Source of the DNA: Minisyncoccota bacterium
GTDB taxonomy: Bacteria > Patescibacteriota > Minisyncoccia > Phycocordibacterales > UBA9973
Length of the DNA: 62,863 nt
Assembly: GCA_942491275.1 (NCBI GenBank)
Contig: CALNZI010000008.1
Span: 1 to 62,863, forward strand
Direction of reading: 5' to 3'
Shown: piece by piece, positions 1 to 57,301 of the stretch
Layout of the letters: each line of letters opens with the position of its first letter
How positions within the stretch are numbered: the first letter of the stretch is position 1
Made by a program: the position numbers and the translations under genes
The notes under the pieces: model-generated
What the model was told of the DNA's origin: nothing
What the model saw: only the letters and a program-made list of their open reading frames with translations
The model's database searches: none

Positions 1-1322
1 GTAACTGGTTCTGGCTCCAATACTTATACTTTCCCTTCGGCTTCTGATACCTTAGTTGGTAGAGATTCAACTGATACTTTAACTAATAAAACAATAGACG
101 CTAATGGAAATACAGGAAACTCAATAACTAATACTATGTTGCTGATTTGGCAGACGGAACAGATGGAGAGCTTATCACTTGGGATGCAGCTGGGGCTCCC
201 ACTACAGTTGCAGCTGGAACAGCTGATCAAGTCCTTACTTCTAATGGAGTAGGTACAGCTCCAACTTTTCAGGATGCGGGAGGAGGATCAGATATCCTTG
301 TTGAAACAGTAGCGATGCCGACTTCCGGATGGGCTGTGGATGGAACATATAGTGATTTTTATTCAGCCACTGTTTCGATTACGGGATTGTTTGAATCGAC
401 GGACGTAGCATTGGCTACTCCTTTAGCAGAAGATACAACGGACGTAAATGCTTGGGCAAGTGCTTTAATAGTTAGAATTGATCGTGTTTCAGACACTTCA
501 ATAAAAATATATTCAAGAATCGCTAATACAAATGCGGTTAATTTCCAATTATTAATAATGGGGGGTAATGCTACATCAACACCAACGGTTACTATTGGAA
601 ATGTAAACCCATATGTCCCTTATTCGGGGGGTGACCCACTTAGTGGAGGAACAAGTACTACTTCTGGGCTTTATACGATTCGTACTTTTTCATCATCTGA
701 TACTTTAGATATTTATACTCCGACATATGTTCAATATTTATGCGTTGCTGGAGGAGGAGCAGGAAGTAGAGCTGGTGGAGGTGGTGGTGGTATGCGTTTT
801 GGATATATTACTTTGACCACAGGTACAATTGCCGTAGAAGTTGGTGCGGGTGGTGTTTATGGTGGTGTTCGTGGAGGTAGTACTTCAATTGGTAGTTATG
901 TTTCTTGTACGGGTGGTGGTTCAGCAACAACCCAGGATGGATACAGTGGAGGTTCAGGAGCTGGAGGTGATGAATTGGGAGATAATGGAGGATCAGGAAC
1001 ATCCGGAGAAGGAAATGCTGGAGGCGCCGGAGATAACGGTGGGAGTACAAGTGATGAAGGAGGTGGAGGTGGGGGTGGGAAAGGCTCTGCTGGACAAGCT
1101 GGTCAAGGTAATGTGGGTGGTGATGCTGGTAATGGATTAGCTAATTCTATTACAGGAACATCAATTTACTATGCAGGTGGACAAGCTGGTACAGGTGACG
1201 GAGGATCAGGATCTGCTGGTAGTCAAGGAGGTGTAGCTTATAATAATAATGGAATTGCCGGTAGAGGTTCTGGTGGTGATACTGGAGGTTCTGGAGTTGT
1301 TATATTACGATATTTAACATAA
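1..1322 (+). CDS. Glycine-rich phage tail-fibre-like protein, 5'-truncated by the window, with an apparent frameshift near 132-140
   Basis: Frame 1 (1-132) reads VTGSGSNTYTFPSASDTLVGRDSTDTLTNKTIDANGNTGNSITN. Frame 3 continues VADLADGTDGELITWDAAGAPTTV and ends in a long Gly-rich domain (VAGGGAGS...GGSGVVILRY). These motifs resemble phage fibre proteins (recalled, not searched). The ORF track starts at TTG 147. Confidence 0.6.
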
Positions 1323-1339
1323 AATAAAAATTAAGAATT

Positions 1340-2188
1340 ATGGCACATTTTGCAAAATTAGATAAGGATGGAAACGTGGTTAATGTTATAGTTGCTACGC
1401 AGGAAGTCATTGACGCGGGAAAGATGGGCCCCCAAGAACTTTTTATAAAGACTTCATACAATACATCTAAAGGGGAATACATACAAAACGGTGATCCAAA
1501 AAATATAGGCAAGAAACCACTCAGAAAAAATTATGCTGGTATAGGGATGAAGTATGATAAAGGACGAGATGCGTTTATTCCAAGAAAGCCCTTTGAGAGT
1601 TGGATATTAGATGAAGATACATGCATATGGGAAGCTCCAGTACCTATGCCTGATGATGGTAAATATGTTTGGGATGAAGATAGTTTAAGTTGGATTAAAA
1701 AAGAAAAGAAAGTTGAAATTAAAGAACCTCCAGCTGAAGAAATAACTCCAGAACCTCCAACTGAAGAACCAACTCCAGAACCTGAACCAGCACCAGAAAC
1801 TCCAGCAGAAGAGCCAGTTGTTGAACCAAATGAGACCGAAGAAACCCCATTAGAACCCACGGATCCACAAGTGGACCCTGCTTCTAACGGGGCAAGCACC
1901 ACAGAATTTCCTGTTGAAGGAGAACCAGCTGTTGAGCCAGTTGAACCAACTGAGCCTGAAGAAACAACCCCAGAACCTGAACCAACACCAGAACCTCCAA
2001 CTGAAGAACCAACACCAGAACCTGAACCAACACCAGAACCTCCAACTGAAGAACCAACTCCAGAACCTGAACCAGCACCAGAAACTCCAGCTGAAGAGCC
2101 AGTTGTTGAACCAACTGAGCCCGAGGAAATACCTCCGACTCCTGAAGAACCAACTCCAGAACCTCCAGTCGAGGAAACAACAGCCTAA
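1340..2188 (+). CDS. Phage fibre-associated small-domain protein (MAHFAKLD...LRKNYAGIG...WEAPVPMP) fused to a Pro/Glu/Thr-rich repeat tail
   Basis: The N-terminal ~120 aa resemble a family commonly encoded after Gly-rich fibre genes in uncultured tailed phages. The C-terminal ~160 aa are PEPTPEPPTEEPT repeats. Confidence 0.65.
   Translation: MAHFAKLDKDGNVVNVIVATQEVIDAGKMGPQELFIKTSYNTSKGEYIQNGDPKNIGKKPLRKNYAGIGMKYDKGRDAFIPRKPFESWILDEDTCIWEAPVPMPDDGKYVWDEDSLSWIKKEKKVEIKEPPAEEITPEPPTEEPTPEPEPAPETPAEEPVVEPNETEETPLEPTDPQVDPASNGASTTEFPVEGEPAVEPVEPTEPEETTPEPEPTPEPPTEEPTPEPEPTPEPPTEEPTPEPEPAPETPAEEPVVEPTEPEEIPPTPEEPTPEPPVEETTA
1748..2114 (+). repeat. Coding direct repeats (82-bp near-identical pair plus shorter units) encoding the PE/PT tract
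   Basis: 1748-1829 and 2033-2114 differ at one base; a shorter copy lies at ~1988-2032. Confidence 0.9.
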
Positions 2189-31145: not shown

Positions 31146-31456
31146 ACTGCCTACGATGTTAATAAATAAAAACCAGTTGAAAATGCGGAAAAAGTAAAAC
31201 TTTCTTAGTTTTCCTTTGTCCGTCATTAAGACGGATTTTTTATTTGTTAGACAAGACATTGAAGATGATATTTGAAAACTGAATGCTGTTCCAACTCACT
31301 GTTATCCTTTAATTTTTTAAGGGTCTTTTGTATCGAGTTGGAAACAGAGTGTGATAATAAAAATTATTATTAGATCGGAAGCGGTTCTGAATGATAATAA
31401 TAAAGTCTGATTCTTTATCTGGAGAGAGAAAGATGATGATGGTTTTCAAATTTCCT

Positions 31457-34955
<3,499 letters not shown>

Positions 34956-35075
34956 AGGAAATATGAAAATCATCCCAGTAGTAGAGCATAGCTCACTACG
35001 GGATCAATTATTGTCACACTTTAGCATTCAGTTTTCAGATATTATCTATCTGAGTAGTGTTCATTGAATTTTTTG

Positions 35076-35184
35076 TTCTGGTGATTCGGCAGTGGGGTCA
35101 CACCCGATTACATTCCGAACTCGGAAGTTAAGTCCATTTGCACCGATGATACTCTTTATGGGGAAAGTAGGTTATTGCCAGAAC
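35076..35184 (+). rRNA. rrf: 5S rRNA
   Basis: TTCTGGTG...CACCCGATTACATTCCGAACTCGGAAGTTAAG...GAAAGTAGG...CCAGAAC. Confidence 0.95.
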
Positions 35185-49845: not shown

Positions 49846-51672
49846 ATGTTAATTTCATACAATTGGCTAAAATCATATGTTCCCGAACTTCCAGAAAGTG
49901 AAAAAATTTCTGATATTATTAACAATCATCTTTGTGAGATTGAAGGTATTGAAAAAAAAGAAAATGATACAGTTTTTGATTTAAATATCTTGCCGGACAG
50001 AGCCCACGATTTACTTTCTCACCAAGGTGTTGCTCGAGAGTTAGCTTCTTTGCTGGAGTTAGATTTTAAACTTCCTGAATATAAAATTCCCACAGATAAT
50101 AAATCTAATTTCAAAATAGAAATAGAGACCGATAAATGTCGTCGATATATGGGTAGAATTGTTAGGAATGTAAAGATTGGACCATCTCCAAAATGGATGG
50201 CTGATTATCTAACTGCCATTGGGCAAAGAAGTATAAATAATATTGTTGATGCAACAAATATTGTGATGTTTGATTGTGGCCAACCAATTCATGCTTTTGA
50301 TTTAAAAGAACTTTCTTCGGAGAAAATAGTAGTTAAAAATGCTGTTATGGATGAAGAATTACAATTAGTTGGATCTGAAGAGGCAATCGTTAAATTAACC
50401 GATTCAAATATGATGATTACCGATGGAAAAAAGAACCTTGCAATAGCAGGAGTTAAAGGGGGAAAGAATTCTGGAGTCTCAGAAAATACAAAGGATCTTT
50501 TAATTGAAGTGGCGAACTTTGAACCAGTTTCTGTTCGTAGAACTTCAAGAGTTTTAGGAATACAAACAGACGCAACAAAGAGATATGAAAATGATTTATC
50601 TGCAAATTTATGTGATTTTGCAATGAAAGAAATTTCATCCTTATTTTTGGACATGTTTCCTGACGCAAAGTTTGAAGAAATTATTGATGAATATCCCATA
50701 AAGAAAGAAAAGAAAGTTATTTCTTTTAGTACAGAATATGTTTCAAAAATGTTGGGTGTTGAGATTTCAGATAAAGAGATAGAAAAAATCTTAAAAAATT
50801 ATAACTTTGATTATAGCGGAAATTGGAATGTGGAAGTTCCTGATATGAGAATCGATTTAAGTGGCCCGCAGGATATGGTTGAGGAAATAGGGAGAGTCTA
50901 TGGTTATGATAAAATTCCTTCAAGATTACCAGAGGTAGATTTTCCCGGAGAGAATAATCCTATTTGGGATAAAATACAAAAAGCGAAGGTCCAGCTTATT
51001 AATGATGGATATAAGGAGATAATGACCTACACTTTTACCAATAGGGGCAAAGTTGAAGTTTTAGCCAGCGCCAGTGATAAAAATTTTCTAAGAGACAATC
51101 TTTCTGACGGGCTTAGGGAGAGTTTAAGATTAAATAAAATAAATGCACCACTTCTTGATTTTGATGAAATTAAAATTTTTGAAATAGGGACAGTGTTTTT
51201 TGAGGATAGGGAGGAAATTCATGTTTGTTTTAATGAGAAGAAAAATATTATAGAAATGACGCTAAAAGAGTTTTCGGGAAAGAAGATTTCTTCTGAAGTC
51301 TACGGATATTTTTCTGCTGAAAAATTCCTCGTGCTCGGGCCGTCGCCCTCCCAAGGTACTTCAGATGAAACTTCTTTTCCTTCAACTTTTAAACCTTGGT
51401 CTTCCTATCCATTTATTTCTCGTGATATTTCTGTTTGGGTTCCAGAAAATACTAAGCCAGAAGAGTTGTCAAAAATTTATGAAGAACTTGGAACTGATCT
51501 TCTTATTAATAAACCAAAACTTTTCGATCAATTTACTAAGGATGGAAGGACTTCCTATGCATTTCGATTGGTTTTTCAATCTCAAGAGAGAACTCTGACG
51601 GACGAGGAAATAAATAAAGTAATGGTAAAAATTGAAGAGAAAATAGCTTCTTCTGGGTGGGAAGTAAGATAA
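49846..51672 (+). CDS. pheT: Phenylalanine-tRNA ligase beta subunit (short form) with a repeat-derived in-frame insert
   Basis: MLISYNWL, PDRAHDLLSHQG.ARE, INNIVDATN, B5 RIDL...EEIGR.YGYD, B8 YPFISRDIS...SYAFRL.FQ...RTL. Confidence 0.95.
   Translation: MLISYNWLKSYVPELPESEKISDIINNHLCEIEGIEKKENDTVFDLNILPDRAHDLLSHQGVARELASLLELDFKLPEYKIPTDNKSNFKIEIETDKCRRYMGRIVRNVKIGPSPKWMADYLTAIGQRSINNIVDATNIVMFDCGQPIHAFDLKELSSEKIVVKNAVMDEELQLVGSEEAIVKLTDSNMMITDGKKNLAIAGVKGGKNSGVSENTKDLLIEVANFEPVSVRRTSRVLGIQTDATKRYENDLSANLCDFAMKEISSLFLDMFPDAKFEEIIDEYPIKKEKKVISFSTEYVSKMLGVEISDKEIEKILKNYNFDYSGNWNVEVPDMRIDLSGPQDMVEEIGRVYGYDKIPSRLPEVDFPGENNPIWDKIQKAKVQLINDGYKEIMTYTFTNRGKVEVLASASDKNFLRDNLSDGLRESLRLNKINAPLLDFDEIKIFEIGTVFFEDREEIHVCFNEKKNIIEMTLKEFSGKKISSEVYGYFSAEKFLVLGPSPSQGTSDETSFPSTFKPWSSYPFISRDISVWVPENTKPEELSKIYEELGTDLLINKPKLFDQFTKDGRTSYAFRLVFQSQERTLTDEEINKVMVKIEEKIASSGWEVR
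51279..51378 (+). repeat. Dispersed structured repeat, copy E, inside the pheT coding sequence
   Basis: ATTTTTC-TGCT-GAAAAAT and GGGC-CGTC-GCCC; IR AAAGAAGATTTCTTCTGAAGT / ACTTCAGATGAAACTTCTTT. Confidence 0.85.
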
Positions 51673-53974: not shown

Positions 53975-54093
53975 AAAAAATATTAAAAATAGCTCTTCTC
54001 TAAATGCACACATAATTTTCTGCTGAAAATTTGATCTGCTCGGGCCGTCGCCCTGCGCAAGGCATCTCTTGAAGACTATTTTTAATATTTTTT
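53975..54093 (+). repeat. Dispersed structured repeat, copy F (between convergent gyrB and thrS)
   Basis: AATTTTC-TGCT-GAAAATT and GGGC-CGTC-GCCC; perfect 18-bp IR AAAAAATATTAAAAATAG / CTATTTTTAATATTTTTT. Confidence 0.92.
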
Positions 54094-55858
54094 AATTTAG
54101 AGTTTTTTCTGAAATTTCTTTTTGTAATTTTTCGAGAAGTTGCTCCGAAGTAATTCCTTCTAACTTTTCATCTCGTCCTTCGAGAGTTACTGTTCTAGAT
54201 TCTTTTTCTTTATCTCCAATAACTATCACGTATGGAGTTTTTTGTAATTTAGCATTACGGATACGTTTTCCAAGAGATTCATTTGAATCATCCAACTCAA
54301 CTCGGATATTTTTTTCTTTTAGTTTATTATAGATTTCATCCGCGTATCCTTTTTGTTTTTCACTAATTGGAGTAATGATTACTTGAACAGGAGAAAGCCA
54401 AAGGGGGAATGCTCCAGCATATTTTTCAATAAGGAAAGCCATTATTCTTTCGATTGCTCCAATAGAAGATCGATGAACCACAAAGGCTCTATGTGATTTT
54501 CCATCTTCTCCTATATAGGAAAGATCAAATCTTTCTGGCATGCAGAAATCATATTGGACCGTGAAGGCCGTATCTTCTTTACCATTTACATTTTTCATTT
54601 GGATATCTATTTTGGGACCATAAAAGGCAGCCTCATCTTTGGCTTCTTCGAATGCAGATTTTCTACTTATCATTAATTCTCGTAGAAGGTCTTCTCCTTT
54701 TTCCCAGGCAGAATCATCGTTATAATATTTTTCAGTATTATTTCTGTCTCCCAGAGAAAGTCGGTATCTATAATCCACATCAAGTTTTAGTCCAAAAACA
54801 GAGGTAATGTACTCAATCAAATCTAGAGCTTTACCAATTTCTTCTACAGCTTGTTTATCTGAAGCACATATTATATGGGCATCGGCTAGACAGAAACTTC
54901 TAACTCTAACAAGACCCATAAGTTCTCCCGACTGTTCATATCGATATAATTTAGCTAATTCAGCAATTTTCAGAGGTAGCTCTTTATAACTATGTGGTTT
55001 ATTTAAATATAATTCAAAGTGATGAGGACAGGTCATTGGTCTAAGCATATATTCTGATTCATCAATTTTTATTGGAGCATACATGGAATCCTTGTAATGG
55101 GGATAATGTCCAGATTTTTTATATAATTCTAAGTTAGCAATGTCTGGAGTTACAACATGTTGATATCCACGTCTAATTTCTTCATCAACAATAAATCTTT
55201 CTAGTTCACGTCTAATTGTTGCTCCCTTAACTGTAAAGAGAGGAAGACCCTTACCAACTGTTTCAGAAAAGACAAAAAGGTCTAATTCTTTCCCTAATTT
55301 TTTATGATCTCTTTTTTCGGCTTCAATTCTCATTTCCTCATATTCTTTTAAAGCCTCTTTGCTTTCAAAAGCCAATCCGTAAATACGAGTAAGCATTTTA
55401 TTTTTTTCATCTCCTCTCCAGTAGGCTCCAGCAACACGGTCCAAATTAAAAGAATCACTTTTAATTTCTTTAGAAGGATTTTCTACATGTCCTCCTCCAC
55501 AAAGATCAGTAAAATCACCACAACTATAAAGGGTTATTTCTTCTCCTCTTTCTACTATTCCGTCTATTAATTCTAATTTGTATACATTATCTTTGTAATA
55601 TTCTCGGGCTTCTTCGGGGGAAACTTTTTTATGACTGAATTCTTTCCAAGAAGAAAGATTTTTTTTCATTATTTTCTCTAATTTTTTTAAATCGTCATCA
55701 TTAACTTTCTTGTCCCCGAAATCAATATCATAATAGAACCCATTATCAACAGCCGGACCCAGTGTTAAGAGCGACCCCGGATGTATTTCTTTGGCAGCCT
55801 GGGCCAATAGATGAGAAAGTGTATGTCTAATATTTTTAATTTTTTCGTTATTTTCCAT
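54092..55858 (-). CDS. thrS: Threonine-tRNA ligase (lacks the N1/TGS domain)
   Basis: RHTLSHLL, DLCGGGHV, AYWRG, DHKKLG, RPMTCPHH, AFYGPKID and VHRSSIGAIER. Confidence 0.98.
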   Translation of the reverse strand: MENNEKIKNIRHTLSHLLAQAAKEIHPGSLLTLGPAVDNGFYYDIDFGDKKVNDDDLKKLEKIMKKNLSSWKEFSHKKVSPEEAREYYKDNVYKLELIDGIVERGEEITLYSCGDFTDLCGGGHVENPSKEIKSDSFNLDRVAGAYWRGDEKNKMLTRIYGLAFESKEALKEYEEMRIEAEKRDHKKLGKELDLFVFSETVGKGLPLFTVKGATIRRELERFIVDEEIRRGYQHVVTPDIANLELYKKSGHYPHYKDSMYAPIKIDESEYMLRPMTCPHHFELYLNKPHSYKELPLKIAELAKLYRYEQSGELMGLVRVRSFCLADAHIICASDKQAVEEIGKALDLIEYITSVFGLKLDVDYRYRLSLGDRNNTEKYYNDDSAWEKGEDLLRELMISRKSAFEEAKDEAAFYGPKIDIQMKNVNGKEDTAFTVQYDFCMPERFDLSYIGEDGKSHRAFVVHRSSIGAIERIMAFLIEKYAGAFPLWLSPVQVIITPISEKQKGYADEIYNKLKEKNIRVELDDSNESLGKRIRNAKLQKTPYVIVIGDKEKESRTVTLEGRDEKLEGITSEQLLEKLQKEISEKTLN

Positions 55859-55879
55859 ATTATTTTTTAAATTAATTAA

Positions 55880-56030
55880 TTAAAATAAAATCGCCCCGAC
55901 AAAAATTAAAAAATTCATTTTTGTCGGGGCGAGTCTAAATTCGCGGTTCCACCCAACTTTGTTCTCTTTTCTATAGATTAGCCCGAAGGTCCCGAGGGGA
56001 TTATGGTTGGTAGCCATAACAATCTCTATC
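55880..56030 (-). ncRNA. Compact T-box riboswitch (Thr) with terminator
   Basis: Minus strand has AAAGTTGGGTGGAACCGCG (55960-55942), a CTCGCCCC antiterminator arm, a 15-bp terminator stem (55891-55932) with U tract, and hairpin TTATGG-CTACCAA-CCATAA with ACC in the loop. Confidence 0.85.
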
Positions 56031-56123
56031 TTTAAATAATACAATTAATGTTTTAATAATGCAAGGACGGTATAGGTCCTTATTTTGTTTGCATTTTAGC
56101 TAAAAATCGGTATACTATGAAAT

Positions 56124-56401: not shown

Positions 56402-57301
56402 ATGGCAAACAGGCACCTTTCACGTTCAATTGTTCTTCAGACACTCTTTGAGTGGGATTTTGATGCTGAAAAAAATACCACCCCCGAAGCAATGCTTGAT
56501 CGTAATATAAAAGAATTTGGTCCTGGTCTTGATGATTCTCAATTTATGAGTGATCTTTTTTCTGGTATTGTTGAAAAAAGAGAAGTGATAAATGAAATTA
56601 TTGAAAAAGCTGCTCCCGATTGGCCAATTGAAAAAATATCTATTGTCGATCGTAATATTCTGAGACTTGGTTTGTATGAGCTACTTTTTGGAGATCGAAA
56701 AGAAGTTCCTCCTAAAGTAGCTATAAATGAAGCCATTGAATTGGCTAAAAGTTTTGGAGGAGAGAATTCCAGTAAATTCATTAATGGTGTTCTTGGTGGT
56801 GTCTACAAAGAAATTGGAGAACCAGGGAAGGACGATGTTAGTAAAAAGAAAAAGAAATTTGAAACTGACCCAACTAAGTTTCCCATAGAAAAAAAAGCTG
56901 GAGCTATCGTATATGCTAATCACGAAAATAAGGTTTACCTTGCTTTCGTCCATGATGTTTTTGGATATTGGACTCTTTCAAAAGGAGGAATAGATGATTT
57001 AAAAGATGAAAAAGAAGGAGCAATTCGCGAGATTAAAAAAGAGATGGGAATTGATATAAAGATTAAAGAACTATTGGGACGTAATGAATATATTGCAAAT
57101 CATCCAGAAAAAGGCAAGATTCGTAAGCAGGTAGTTTTCTTTTTGGCTGAGGCGGATTATCAGGATTTGGTGCTTAATAAGGAATCTGGGGGATTAGATG
57201 AGGCGAGATGGTTCCCAATGGATGAAATTGCTAGTCTCAAAATGTATGACAATATGGTTCCTTTGTTAACAAAAGCTGTCGAAATTTTAACCAGTAAATA
57301 A
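56402..57301 (+). CDS. nusB: NusB fused to a C-terminal Nudix-fold domain
   Basis: R..SR..VLQ.LFE, DRNILRLG.YEL, VAINEAIELAK.FG and FINGVLG; then KAGAIVY...WTLSKGGID...AIREIKKEMGI. Confidence 0.9.
   Translation: MANRHLSRSIVLQTLFEWDFDAEKNTTPEAMLDRNIKEFGPGLDDSQFMSDLFSGIVEKREVINEIIEKAAPDWPIEKISIVDRNILRLGLYELLFGDRKEVPPKVAINEAIELAKSFGGENSSKFINGVLGGVYKEIGEPGKDDVSKKKKKFETDPTKFPIEKKAGAIVYANHENKVYLAFVHDVFGYWTLSKGGIDDLKDEKEGAIREIKKEMGIDIKIKELLGRNEYIANHPEKGKIRKQVVFFLAEADYQDLVLNKESGGLDEARWFPMDEIASLKMYDNMVPLLTKAVEILTSK

Follow-up and report, generated by a model that had tools for sequence, protein, structure and literature searches.

A short thrS leader in a Patescibacteria genome that reads as a transcription-attenuating T-box of reduced design

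The gene for threonyl-tRNA synthetase, thrS, of a Minisyncoccota (Patescibacteria) bacterium is preceded by an RNA leader of about 105 nt plus a terminator, and this leader is in all probability a genuine, conserved T-box of reduced design that is specific for tRNA-Thr and attenuates transcription. The DNA concerned, here called the window, is the whole stretch of 62,863 nt that was analysed (contig CALNZI010000008.1 of assembly GCA_942491275.1), and both leader and gene are on its minus strand. In logic and core motifs the leader is a T-box, yet it fails several features of the canonical family and of the actinobacterial ultrashort class alike. An earlier note, made from the letters of this DNA, had a T-box, an antiterminator and a terminator preceding thrS on that strand, and all three are where it put them.

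The 3′ part carries the hallmarks. The T-box sequence (GGGTGGAACCGCG / GGGUGGAACCGCG, 55954-55942) contains a 7-nt bulge, UGGAACC (55951-55945), set between the two helices of an antiterminator that occupies 55923-55957: A1, of 6 bp, pairs GUUGGG (55957-55952) with CCCGAC (55928-55923), and A2, of 4 bp, pairs GCGA (55944-55941) with UCGC (55932-55929). The general T-box pattern, (A)GGGUGGNACCGCG with a 7-nt bulge between A1 and A2, is matched, and the motif GGTGGNACCRCG has a single occurrence in the 62.8-kb window. An intrinsic terminator hairpin of 16 bp and -27.2 kcal/mol (UCGCCCCGACAAAAAU / AUUUUUGUCGGGGCGA, 55891-55932) is followed directly by the U-run UUUUAUUUUA (55881-55890). One stretch, CGCCCCGAC, serves as both the 3′ strand of the antiterminator and the 5′ strand of the terminator, and in all members of the family described below the two helices are mutually exclusive. 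The start codon of thrS is 23 nt beyond the U-run, and a Shine-Dalgarno sequence is neither present nor paired. To judge from this arrangement, the expression platform is one of transcription attenuation and not of translational control.

Is this leader peculiar to one contig? A protein-based scan, with one genome per GTDB species, gave 80 Patescibacteria thrS loci (loci carry L numbers here), and in eight of them a T-box motif is upstream: L005, L031, L046, L047, L057, L067, L069 and L080. The remaining 72 are without one, so the T-box is patchily distributed among these bacteria of the Candidate Phyla Radiation (CPR). One of the eight, L005 (contig CAZUCZ010000008.1), has the same leader as the window. 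A second scan, of metagenomes, used a pattern in which TAGAGA, AAGAG and GGGTGGNACCRC alone were fixed, with no constraint on the spacers, on the hairpin or on the base that pairs with the discriminator. It returned 23 loci, 16 of which have the window's leader, 15 of these being distinct (L202 and L210 are the same). Beyond the window the leader family has 16 further members, and a 17th, more distant and with a Stem III (L057); counts of 17 below refer to the window plus its 16 relatives, and counts of 18 include the more distant leader. At every family locus having downstream sequence, the gene there is thrS. The encoded ThrS proteins are 45-65% identical to that of the window and the leaders are far better conserved than this, which points to selection on the leader itself. 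That the element is transcriptional, threonine-specific and found in a CPR lineage, as the earlier note had it, is supported by a terminator in every member, by thrS downstream and by the relatives being metagenome-assembled genomes of Patescibacteria.

The metagenome scan also brought up ordinary T-boxes (L204, L208 and L215) and two stretches within coding sequence (L217 and L219); L201/L207 has no open reading frame (ORF) downstream and is not a T-box. A trial pattern run on viral contigs (L081-L200) gave chance matches only, its 14 specified bases being too few, and the covariance model R1 found no further close members in the collected sequences. Two members differ between terminator and gene: in L206 an ORF for a MazG-like pyrophosphohydrolase (about 1114-1500, reverse strand) separates the T-box terminator from thrS, and in L216 an insert of about 150 nt, non-coding and richer in GC, takes up the same place (500-650).

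Throughout the family the 3′ part holds. A1, the UGGAACC bulge and A2 are retained and paired in 17 of 17 leaders, with the extension of A1 varying between U·G, U-A and C-G. The terminators have 16-20 bp and -22 to -35 kcal/mol and are followed by AUUUU..., and the sequence of their upper stem differs yet stays paired.

The decoding part is the less familiar half. On the pairing evidence that follows, it consists of some 58 nt folded into a compact four-way junction, with the specifier hairpin, P2, as one arm. From the predicted start of transcription the T-box is preceded by about 77 nt, close to the approximately 70 nt that the earlier note had given. P2 (56001-56019), which can be called an ultrashort Stem I, has a 6-bp stem, UUAUGG (56019-56014) with CCAUAA (56006-56001), and a 7-nt loop, CUACCAA (56013-56007), in which ACC (56011-56009) is followed by AA. 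The hairpin and its ACC are as the earlier note had them, and the hairpin is no chance occurrence, 16 homologous leaders having been recovered independently of its sequence. In a MAFFT alignment of the 17 leaders there are compensatory changes at six of the six stem pairs, and 97% of the cells are paired; UUAUGG/CCAUAA, CAAGAG/CUCUUG, UUGCGA/UCGCAA and UGGCGG/CCGCUG are examples of the stems. The loop is another matter: ACCAA is invariant in all 17, and the two bases leading into it vary (CU, UC, UU, CC). The hairpin does not stand by itself: it is an arm of a junction whose closing helix pairs the 5′ end with CUAAUCUAU.

That closing helix, P1, joins the extreme 5′ end of the leader to sequence further along it. 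Its 5′ strand, AUAGA[GA]UUG (56020-56029), has an outer helix, a GA bulge and an inner UUG, and its 3′ strand, UAA-UCUAU, comes after a junction C (CUAAUCUAU, 55973-55981); GAUUG and CUAA are invariant. The alignment used for P1 was purely positional, taking 7 nt before GAUUG, then P2, CUAA and 7 nt after it, and in it the 5′ end pairs with the sequence that follows CUAA. One outer pair is AU in eight leaders, GC in four, UA in two, CG in one and GU in one; double changes occur in 13 of 16 pairs. The register, NNUAGA[GA]UUG / UAA-UCUANN with an invariant GA bulge, is fixed by L223 (UAGG/CCUA) and by the distant L057 (CUUUU/GAAAG). RNAalifold, given the same alignment, recovers P2 and P1 independently, the latter in a slipped register, AGAUUG/UAAUCU. 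None of 500 shuffles matched the P1/P2 covariation observed, and controls in which P2 was slid dropped to 30-48% paired.

The two remaining arms are small. P3 (55990-56000; UCCC-CUC-GGGA) is a hairpin in each member but of unrelated sequence and length, and L213 is without it. P4 (55982-55989; CC-UUCG-GG) has 2-3 bp and a tetraloop, its pairs switching from CC/GG to UC/GA, CU/AG or GC/GC and its loop being UUCG, GAAA, GUAA, AGAA or others. With P3 and the P4 loop so variable, no conserved S-turn or pseudoknot is possible. The layout goes beyond a Stem I plus a T-box: a closing helix and two small hairpins are also present, and a Stem III and the G·U pair of A2 are missing, which had gone unnoticed.

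Is the ACC of the P2 loop the specifier? It is a Thr codon, it has a purine after it, it is invariant amid changing surroundings, and it turns up again in a hairpin loop of five more of the short thrS leaders of the CPR, and so its assignment as the Thr specifier is supported, as far as sequence can carry it. The loops of those five hairpins are UUACCAA, ACUUACCAC, ACUCACCAA, ACGCAACCAAC and AUCUCACCAAC. The earlier note had suggested conservation of ACC as a check, and the outcome is in its favour, with the loop codon kept in 17 of 17 leaders and in these five, and the family stem covarying at all its pairs. ACC makes up 14% of the Thr codons in the window (35% GC). T-boxes prefer a C at the third position of the specifier, NNC (PMC7583486), and given that ACC is rare among Thr codons here, the choice fits that preference and not codon usage. 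A competing notion is that another ACC is read, such as the one in GGGACC at the P3/P4 junction (55993-55988), which 11 members have besides the window, P2 then having another role. The CC of the junction is, however, the 5′ strand of P4 and changes along with its partner, giving AUC, UUC, ACU and GCC among L202, L206, L218, L223 and L220. Moreover the junction ACC is absent from the other short CPR leaders, in contrast to the invariant loop ACC with the expected purine after it, and we think this notion very unlikely. A further idea about the loop, that its CCAAC pairs with the GUUGG before the T-box as an anti-antiterminator, was dropped, as the flank becomes GUCGG or CCCGG in L202, L220 and L206 without compensation.

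If the ACC of the P2 loop is the specifier, the cognate tRNA-Thr would have the anticodon GGU, and from the UGGA of the bulge its discriminator base is predicted to be U73, as in the earlier note, which drew a putative parallel with the tRNA-Thr of Firmicutes. Among bacterial tRNA-Thr genes A73 is found in 131,288 and U73 in 28,854, or 18% (PMC6097841), a share that makes U73 plausible.

A 7-nt loop on a hairpin the size of an anticodon arm, in front of thrS, brings another system to mind. In E. coli ThrS autoregulates by binding a mimic of the anticodon arm in its own leader, and might ThrS do the same here? The likeness goes as far as a structured leader that controls thrS, and there is the precedent. 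But the E. coli operator is protein-bound, mimics the anticodon arm of tRNA-Thr, acts on translation initiation and has no T-box or terminator. In the CPR leader a complete T-box bulge, antiterminator and terminator are present, the loop carries the codon ACC and not a Thr anticodon (GGU, UGU or CGU), and neither a Shine-Dalgarno sequence nor a start codon plays a part. The operator was considered and rejected as a match, and autoregulation of this type is one we can hardly credit.

Where does the transcript start? The predicted promoter of thrS has a -35 hexamer, TTGCAT (56059-56064), a 17-nt spacer and an extended -10, TG-TATTAT (56036-56043). When the 18 leaders are anchored on GAUUG, a TTGnnn at the same relative position, a 17-nt spacer and a TGnTAnnAT fall in shared columns, and in all members the -10 ends 6-8 nt before P1. 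A promoter at so fixed a distance means that the transcript should begin at P1, and the start is predicted at about 56030-56028; an end this close to the first helix also leaves no room for a long Stem I. The thrS-rpmF gap, in which the whole leader is located, is 265 nt, and from P1 to the start codon of the divergent rpmF there are 94 nt, within which there is a promoter-like site for rpmF. In the window the approximately 60 nt remaining upstream are occupied by the promoter and the beginning of the divergent rpmF. In the family comparison, conservation upstream of the thrS promoter is limited to this rpmF promoter-like site on the opposite strand, and rpmF stays adjacent to the leader in most members. 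Could the start nevertheless be further upstream, with the true leader having a conventional long Stem I? A hairpin is there, AAGGAC-CUAUACC-GUCCUU (56081-56063), with a loop that ends in ACC, and the start at P1 is a predicted one. That hairpin, though, overlaps the -35 and is unconserved in the family, in all 18 leaders the promoter is fixed relative to P1, and the covariation of P1 ties the extreme 5′ end to CUAAUCUAU, with little distance left before rpmF. Longer upstream RNA, moreover, folds without significant structure (z = -0.3). A distant start thus seems highly improbable; the earlier note had named a far upstream start with a full-length Stem I as an outcome that would speak against its reading, and the evidence of the promoters argues against one.

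What weighs against regarding the leader as a tRNA-sensing T-box? Several points do, and they belong together. Transcriptional T-boxes generally need a long Stem I with an elbow-binding distal module, whose grip on the tRNA allows its capture in time, and Stem III has been called indispensable for binding of the tRNA 3′ end (PMC7583486); both are absent here. The T-box discriminator is described as 5′-RRRxG-Stem III-AA-3′ plus A1 and A2, with a conserved G·U at the end of A2 as the steric sensor of the aminoacyl group (PMC7583486). In the leader a purine-rich linker, AGAAAAGAGAACAAA (55958-55972), contains AAGAG-AA (55968-55962), in which AAGAG (55968-55964) fits the RRRxG motif and the AA is contiguous with it, with no Stem III helix between; in the Rfam alignment Stem III is deleted. 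The A2 pair beside the bulge is G-C (GCG.../...CGC-CCC) in 17 of 17 leaders in place of the G·U sensor pair, and aminoacyl sensing may differ or be weaker. ARAGORN found no tRNA-Thr in the window or in 103 CPR loci, which leaves GGU and U73 as predictions; the only tRNA in the window is a tRNA-Ser(GGA). Finally, the 15 metagenomic members are a biased and fairly close set owing to the fixed pattern, and since AAGAG was required by that pattern its conservation in L202-L223 carries no weight of its own.

Some of these points would equally suit a more modest view, that the discriminator is really that of a T-box but makes no distinction between charged and uncharged tRNA, or depends on a protein, the leader then being a sensor of tRNA-Thr abundance or a protein-assisted or largely constitutive attenuator. 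The missing Stem III helix and the replaced G·U favour it, as a review deems both important for sensing (PMC7583486). Set against this is the strong selection on the UGGA-ACC bulge, on A1/A2 and on the RRRxG-AA purines, which is hard to explain if the 3′ end of a tRNA is not read, and the strictness with which the loop ACCAA is conserved argues for tRNA binding as opposed to a non-discriminating attenuator. We consider that view unlikely, and a T-box that would discriminate the charged state of tRNA-Thr is the reading retained.

How does the leader compare with the T-boxes that are known? Like the canonical ones of RF00230, e.g., B. subtilis tyrS and thrS, it has the 7-nt UGGNACC bulge, an antiterminator and terminator that share a strand, a specifier that matches the regulated aminoacyl-tRNA synthetase gene and is followed by a purine, and RRRxG and AA purines upstream of A1. 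Unlike them, its Stem I is of 6 bp with the codon in the terminal loop, and the K-turn, the specifier internal loop, the AG bulge and the distal loop are missing. A conserved Stem II S-turn, a IIA/B pseudoknot (F-box) and a Stem III helix are missing as well, the terminal pair of A2 is G-C, and the closing helix P1 gives a four-way junction.

Closer in Stem I are the translational ileS T-boxes of Actinobacteria with ultrashort Stem I, reportedly described by Sherwood, Grundy and Henkin in 2015, of which there are structures from M. tuberculosis and N. farcinica. They share with the CPR leader the truncated Stem I without an elbow module, the specifier in a terminal loop, and the same logic of T-box bulge and A1/A2. 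They differ in sequestering a Shine-Dalgarno sequence where the CPR leader has a terminator with a U-run, in having a conserved Stem II S-turn, IIA/B pseudoknot and Stem III where the CPR leader has a variable or absent P3 and neither of the others, and in reading AUC for ileS and not ACC for thrS. Such truncated Stem I leaders rely on the S-turn in Stem II together with the IIA/B pseudoknot (PMC7583486, PMC11297988). The glyQS T-boxes, the simplest well-studied transcriptional ones, are similar in being transcriptional, in having no Stem II domain or IIA/B pseudoknot and in having a UGGA bulge for a U73 tRNA. They keep, however, a long Stem I with K-turn, specifier internal loop and elbow module, and also Stem III. 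Their reduced design has been explained by the strong GGC/GCC pairing (PMC7583486), and unlike that the ACC/GGU pairing proposed for the CPR leader includes an A-U pair.

If the leader is a T-box of this reduced kind, how might it work? Transcription would begin at about 56030 from a sigma-70-type promoter, and the first 58 nt or so would fold into the P1-P4 junction, with P2 presenting ACC, then AA, in its 7-nt loop. The anticodon of tRNA-Thr(GGU) would pair with that loop, and an uncharged tRNA would also pair through its 3′ end, predicted as UCCA, with the UGGA of the bulge, stabilising A1/A2 of the antiterminator and letting RNA polymerase read through into thrS. Otherwise the much more stable 16-bp terminator would capture CGCCCCGAC, and transcription would stop in the U-run 23 nt before the start codon. 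The elbow contact, S-turn, pseudoknot and Stem III are all missing, and our guess as to affinity and speed is that the lost contacts are made up for by a loop pre-organised on a P1-P2 stack, by the junction and the purine linker, or by the help of a protein. A bolder proposal, which we advance tentatively and somewhat short of conviction, is that of a distinct T-box class, a transcriptional sensor some 105 nt long that would recognise uncharged tRNA-Thr co-transcriptionally with no more than a codon in the 7-nt loop of a hairpin on a four-way junction, plus a discriminator with G-C and without Stem III. It would manage without the four accessory modules at present held to be essential, namely the elbow-binding distal Stem I, Stem II S-turn, IIA/B pseudoknot and Stem III, new contacts of the junction and linker replacing them.

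The other T-box-bearing thrS leaders of the CPR are instructive in this regard. In L046, L047, L057, L067 and L080 a short leader of another kind follows a consensus promoter directly, with ACC-A in a hairpin loop. L069 has a long leader of canonical type, with ACC-G in an internal loop, and even so scores just 45.8 bits with Rfam; L031 is a further variant. UGGA is found in all eight. Stem III, set between the same RRRxG and AA motifs, and G·U are both kept in L057 and L069, and L031, L046 and L047 are without Stem III. Together these leaders look like a reduction series. Among them are short designs whose ACC is in a loop of 9-11 nt, and some of these have no Stem III; in L067 and L080 AUGGAACC is present and the antiterminator is enclosed by a helix.

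As to the loci that have no T-box, in the 14 that were read among L001-L016 the ATG comes only a few bases after an extended -10 (TGCTATAnT), suggesting that these thrS mRNAs are leaderless, with essentially no leader. L007, which has the ThrS nearest to that of the window (74% identity), is without a T-box.

Why was such an element passed over? At gathering thresholds Rfam reports a T-box neither in the window nor in any of 20 related loci. In a search with a permissive E-value RF00230 does match, with 27.6 bits compared to a gathering score of 93, a result against canonical membership, and the alignment is confident for the linker purines and the antiterminator only, with Stem I, Stem II and IIA/B of the model unaligned. 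The match is weak but specific and is confined to the discriminator, in the 3′ part. No family of Rfam 15 besides RF00230 matches the leader. On the plus strand, matches to an 'L21 leader' and to a miRNA (55871-55946) are to the reverse complement of the terminator hairpin and were taken as spurious. The T-box database TBDB removed sequences of <100 nt, and short forms were sought only in Actinobacteria (PMC7778990). A literature search on T-boxes together with CPR, Patescibacteria, Parcubacteria, Saccharibacteria or atypical thrS gave no prior description in a limited full-text library, and within the limits of that library the leader family is undescribed.

The regulated gene (54092-55858, minus strand, with its ATG at 55858) encodes a ThrS of 588 amino acids with three Pfam domains and no others: tRNA_SAD, the class II core and HGTP, which binds the anticodon. 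The N-terminal TGS domain is absent, the protein beginning at the editing, or second additional, domain. Between U-run and ATG (55859-55880; AUUAAUUAAUUUAAAAAAUAAU) there are only A and U, with nothing resembling a Shine-Dalgarno sequence. A 54-codon ORF at 55880-56044 spans the conserved RNA structure and was not taken as a gene. Elsewhere in the window, pheT, for the beta subunit of phenylalanyl-tRNA synthetase (49846-51672), has no T-box motif upstream, and thrS is the sole gene there under T-box control.

On the other side is the divergent rpmF (L32; 56124-56336, plus strand). In the plus-strand sense the hairpin at 56063-56081 reads AAGGAC-GGTATAG-GTCCTT and is followed by ATTTTGTTTG, resembling an intrinsic terminator; it has the divergent promoters of thrS and rpmF on either side and no plus-strand gene before it. 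Beyond rpmF, and before a gene for RNase III, a single ORF (56402-57301) has both NusB and NUDIX hydrolase domains. The 23S rRNA match at 31456-35183 extends over 3503 nt compared to a model of 2925 nt and so has several insertions, at least one of them visible near 31733-31761. A 5S gene follows it and a 16S gene is absent from the whole window, so the rRNA operon appears to be split.

T-boxes, then, do occur in the CPR, or Patescibacteria, and standard annotation misses them, both because they fall below the Rfam threshold and because of the scope of TBDB. If the proposal of a distinct class is right, the thrS leader would be the smallest natural tRNA-sensing RNA known. It would be a test of which T-box contacts are truly required, and a compact part for the engineering of tRNA-responsive switches. 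For the CPR themselves, the set of thrS leaders may be a record of the stepwise reduction of the T-box.

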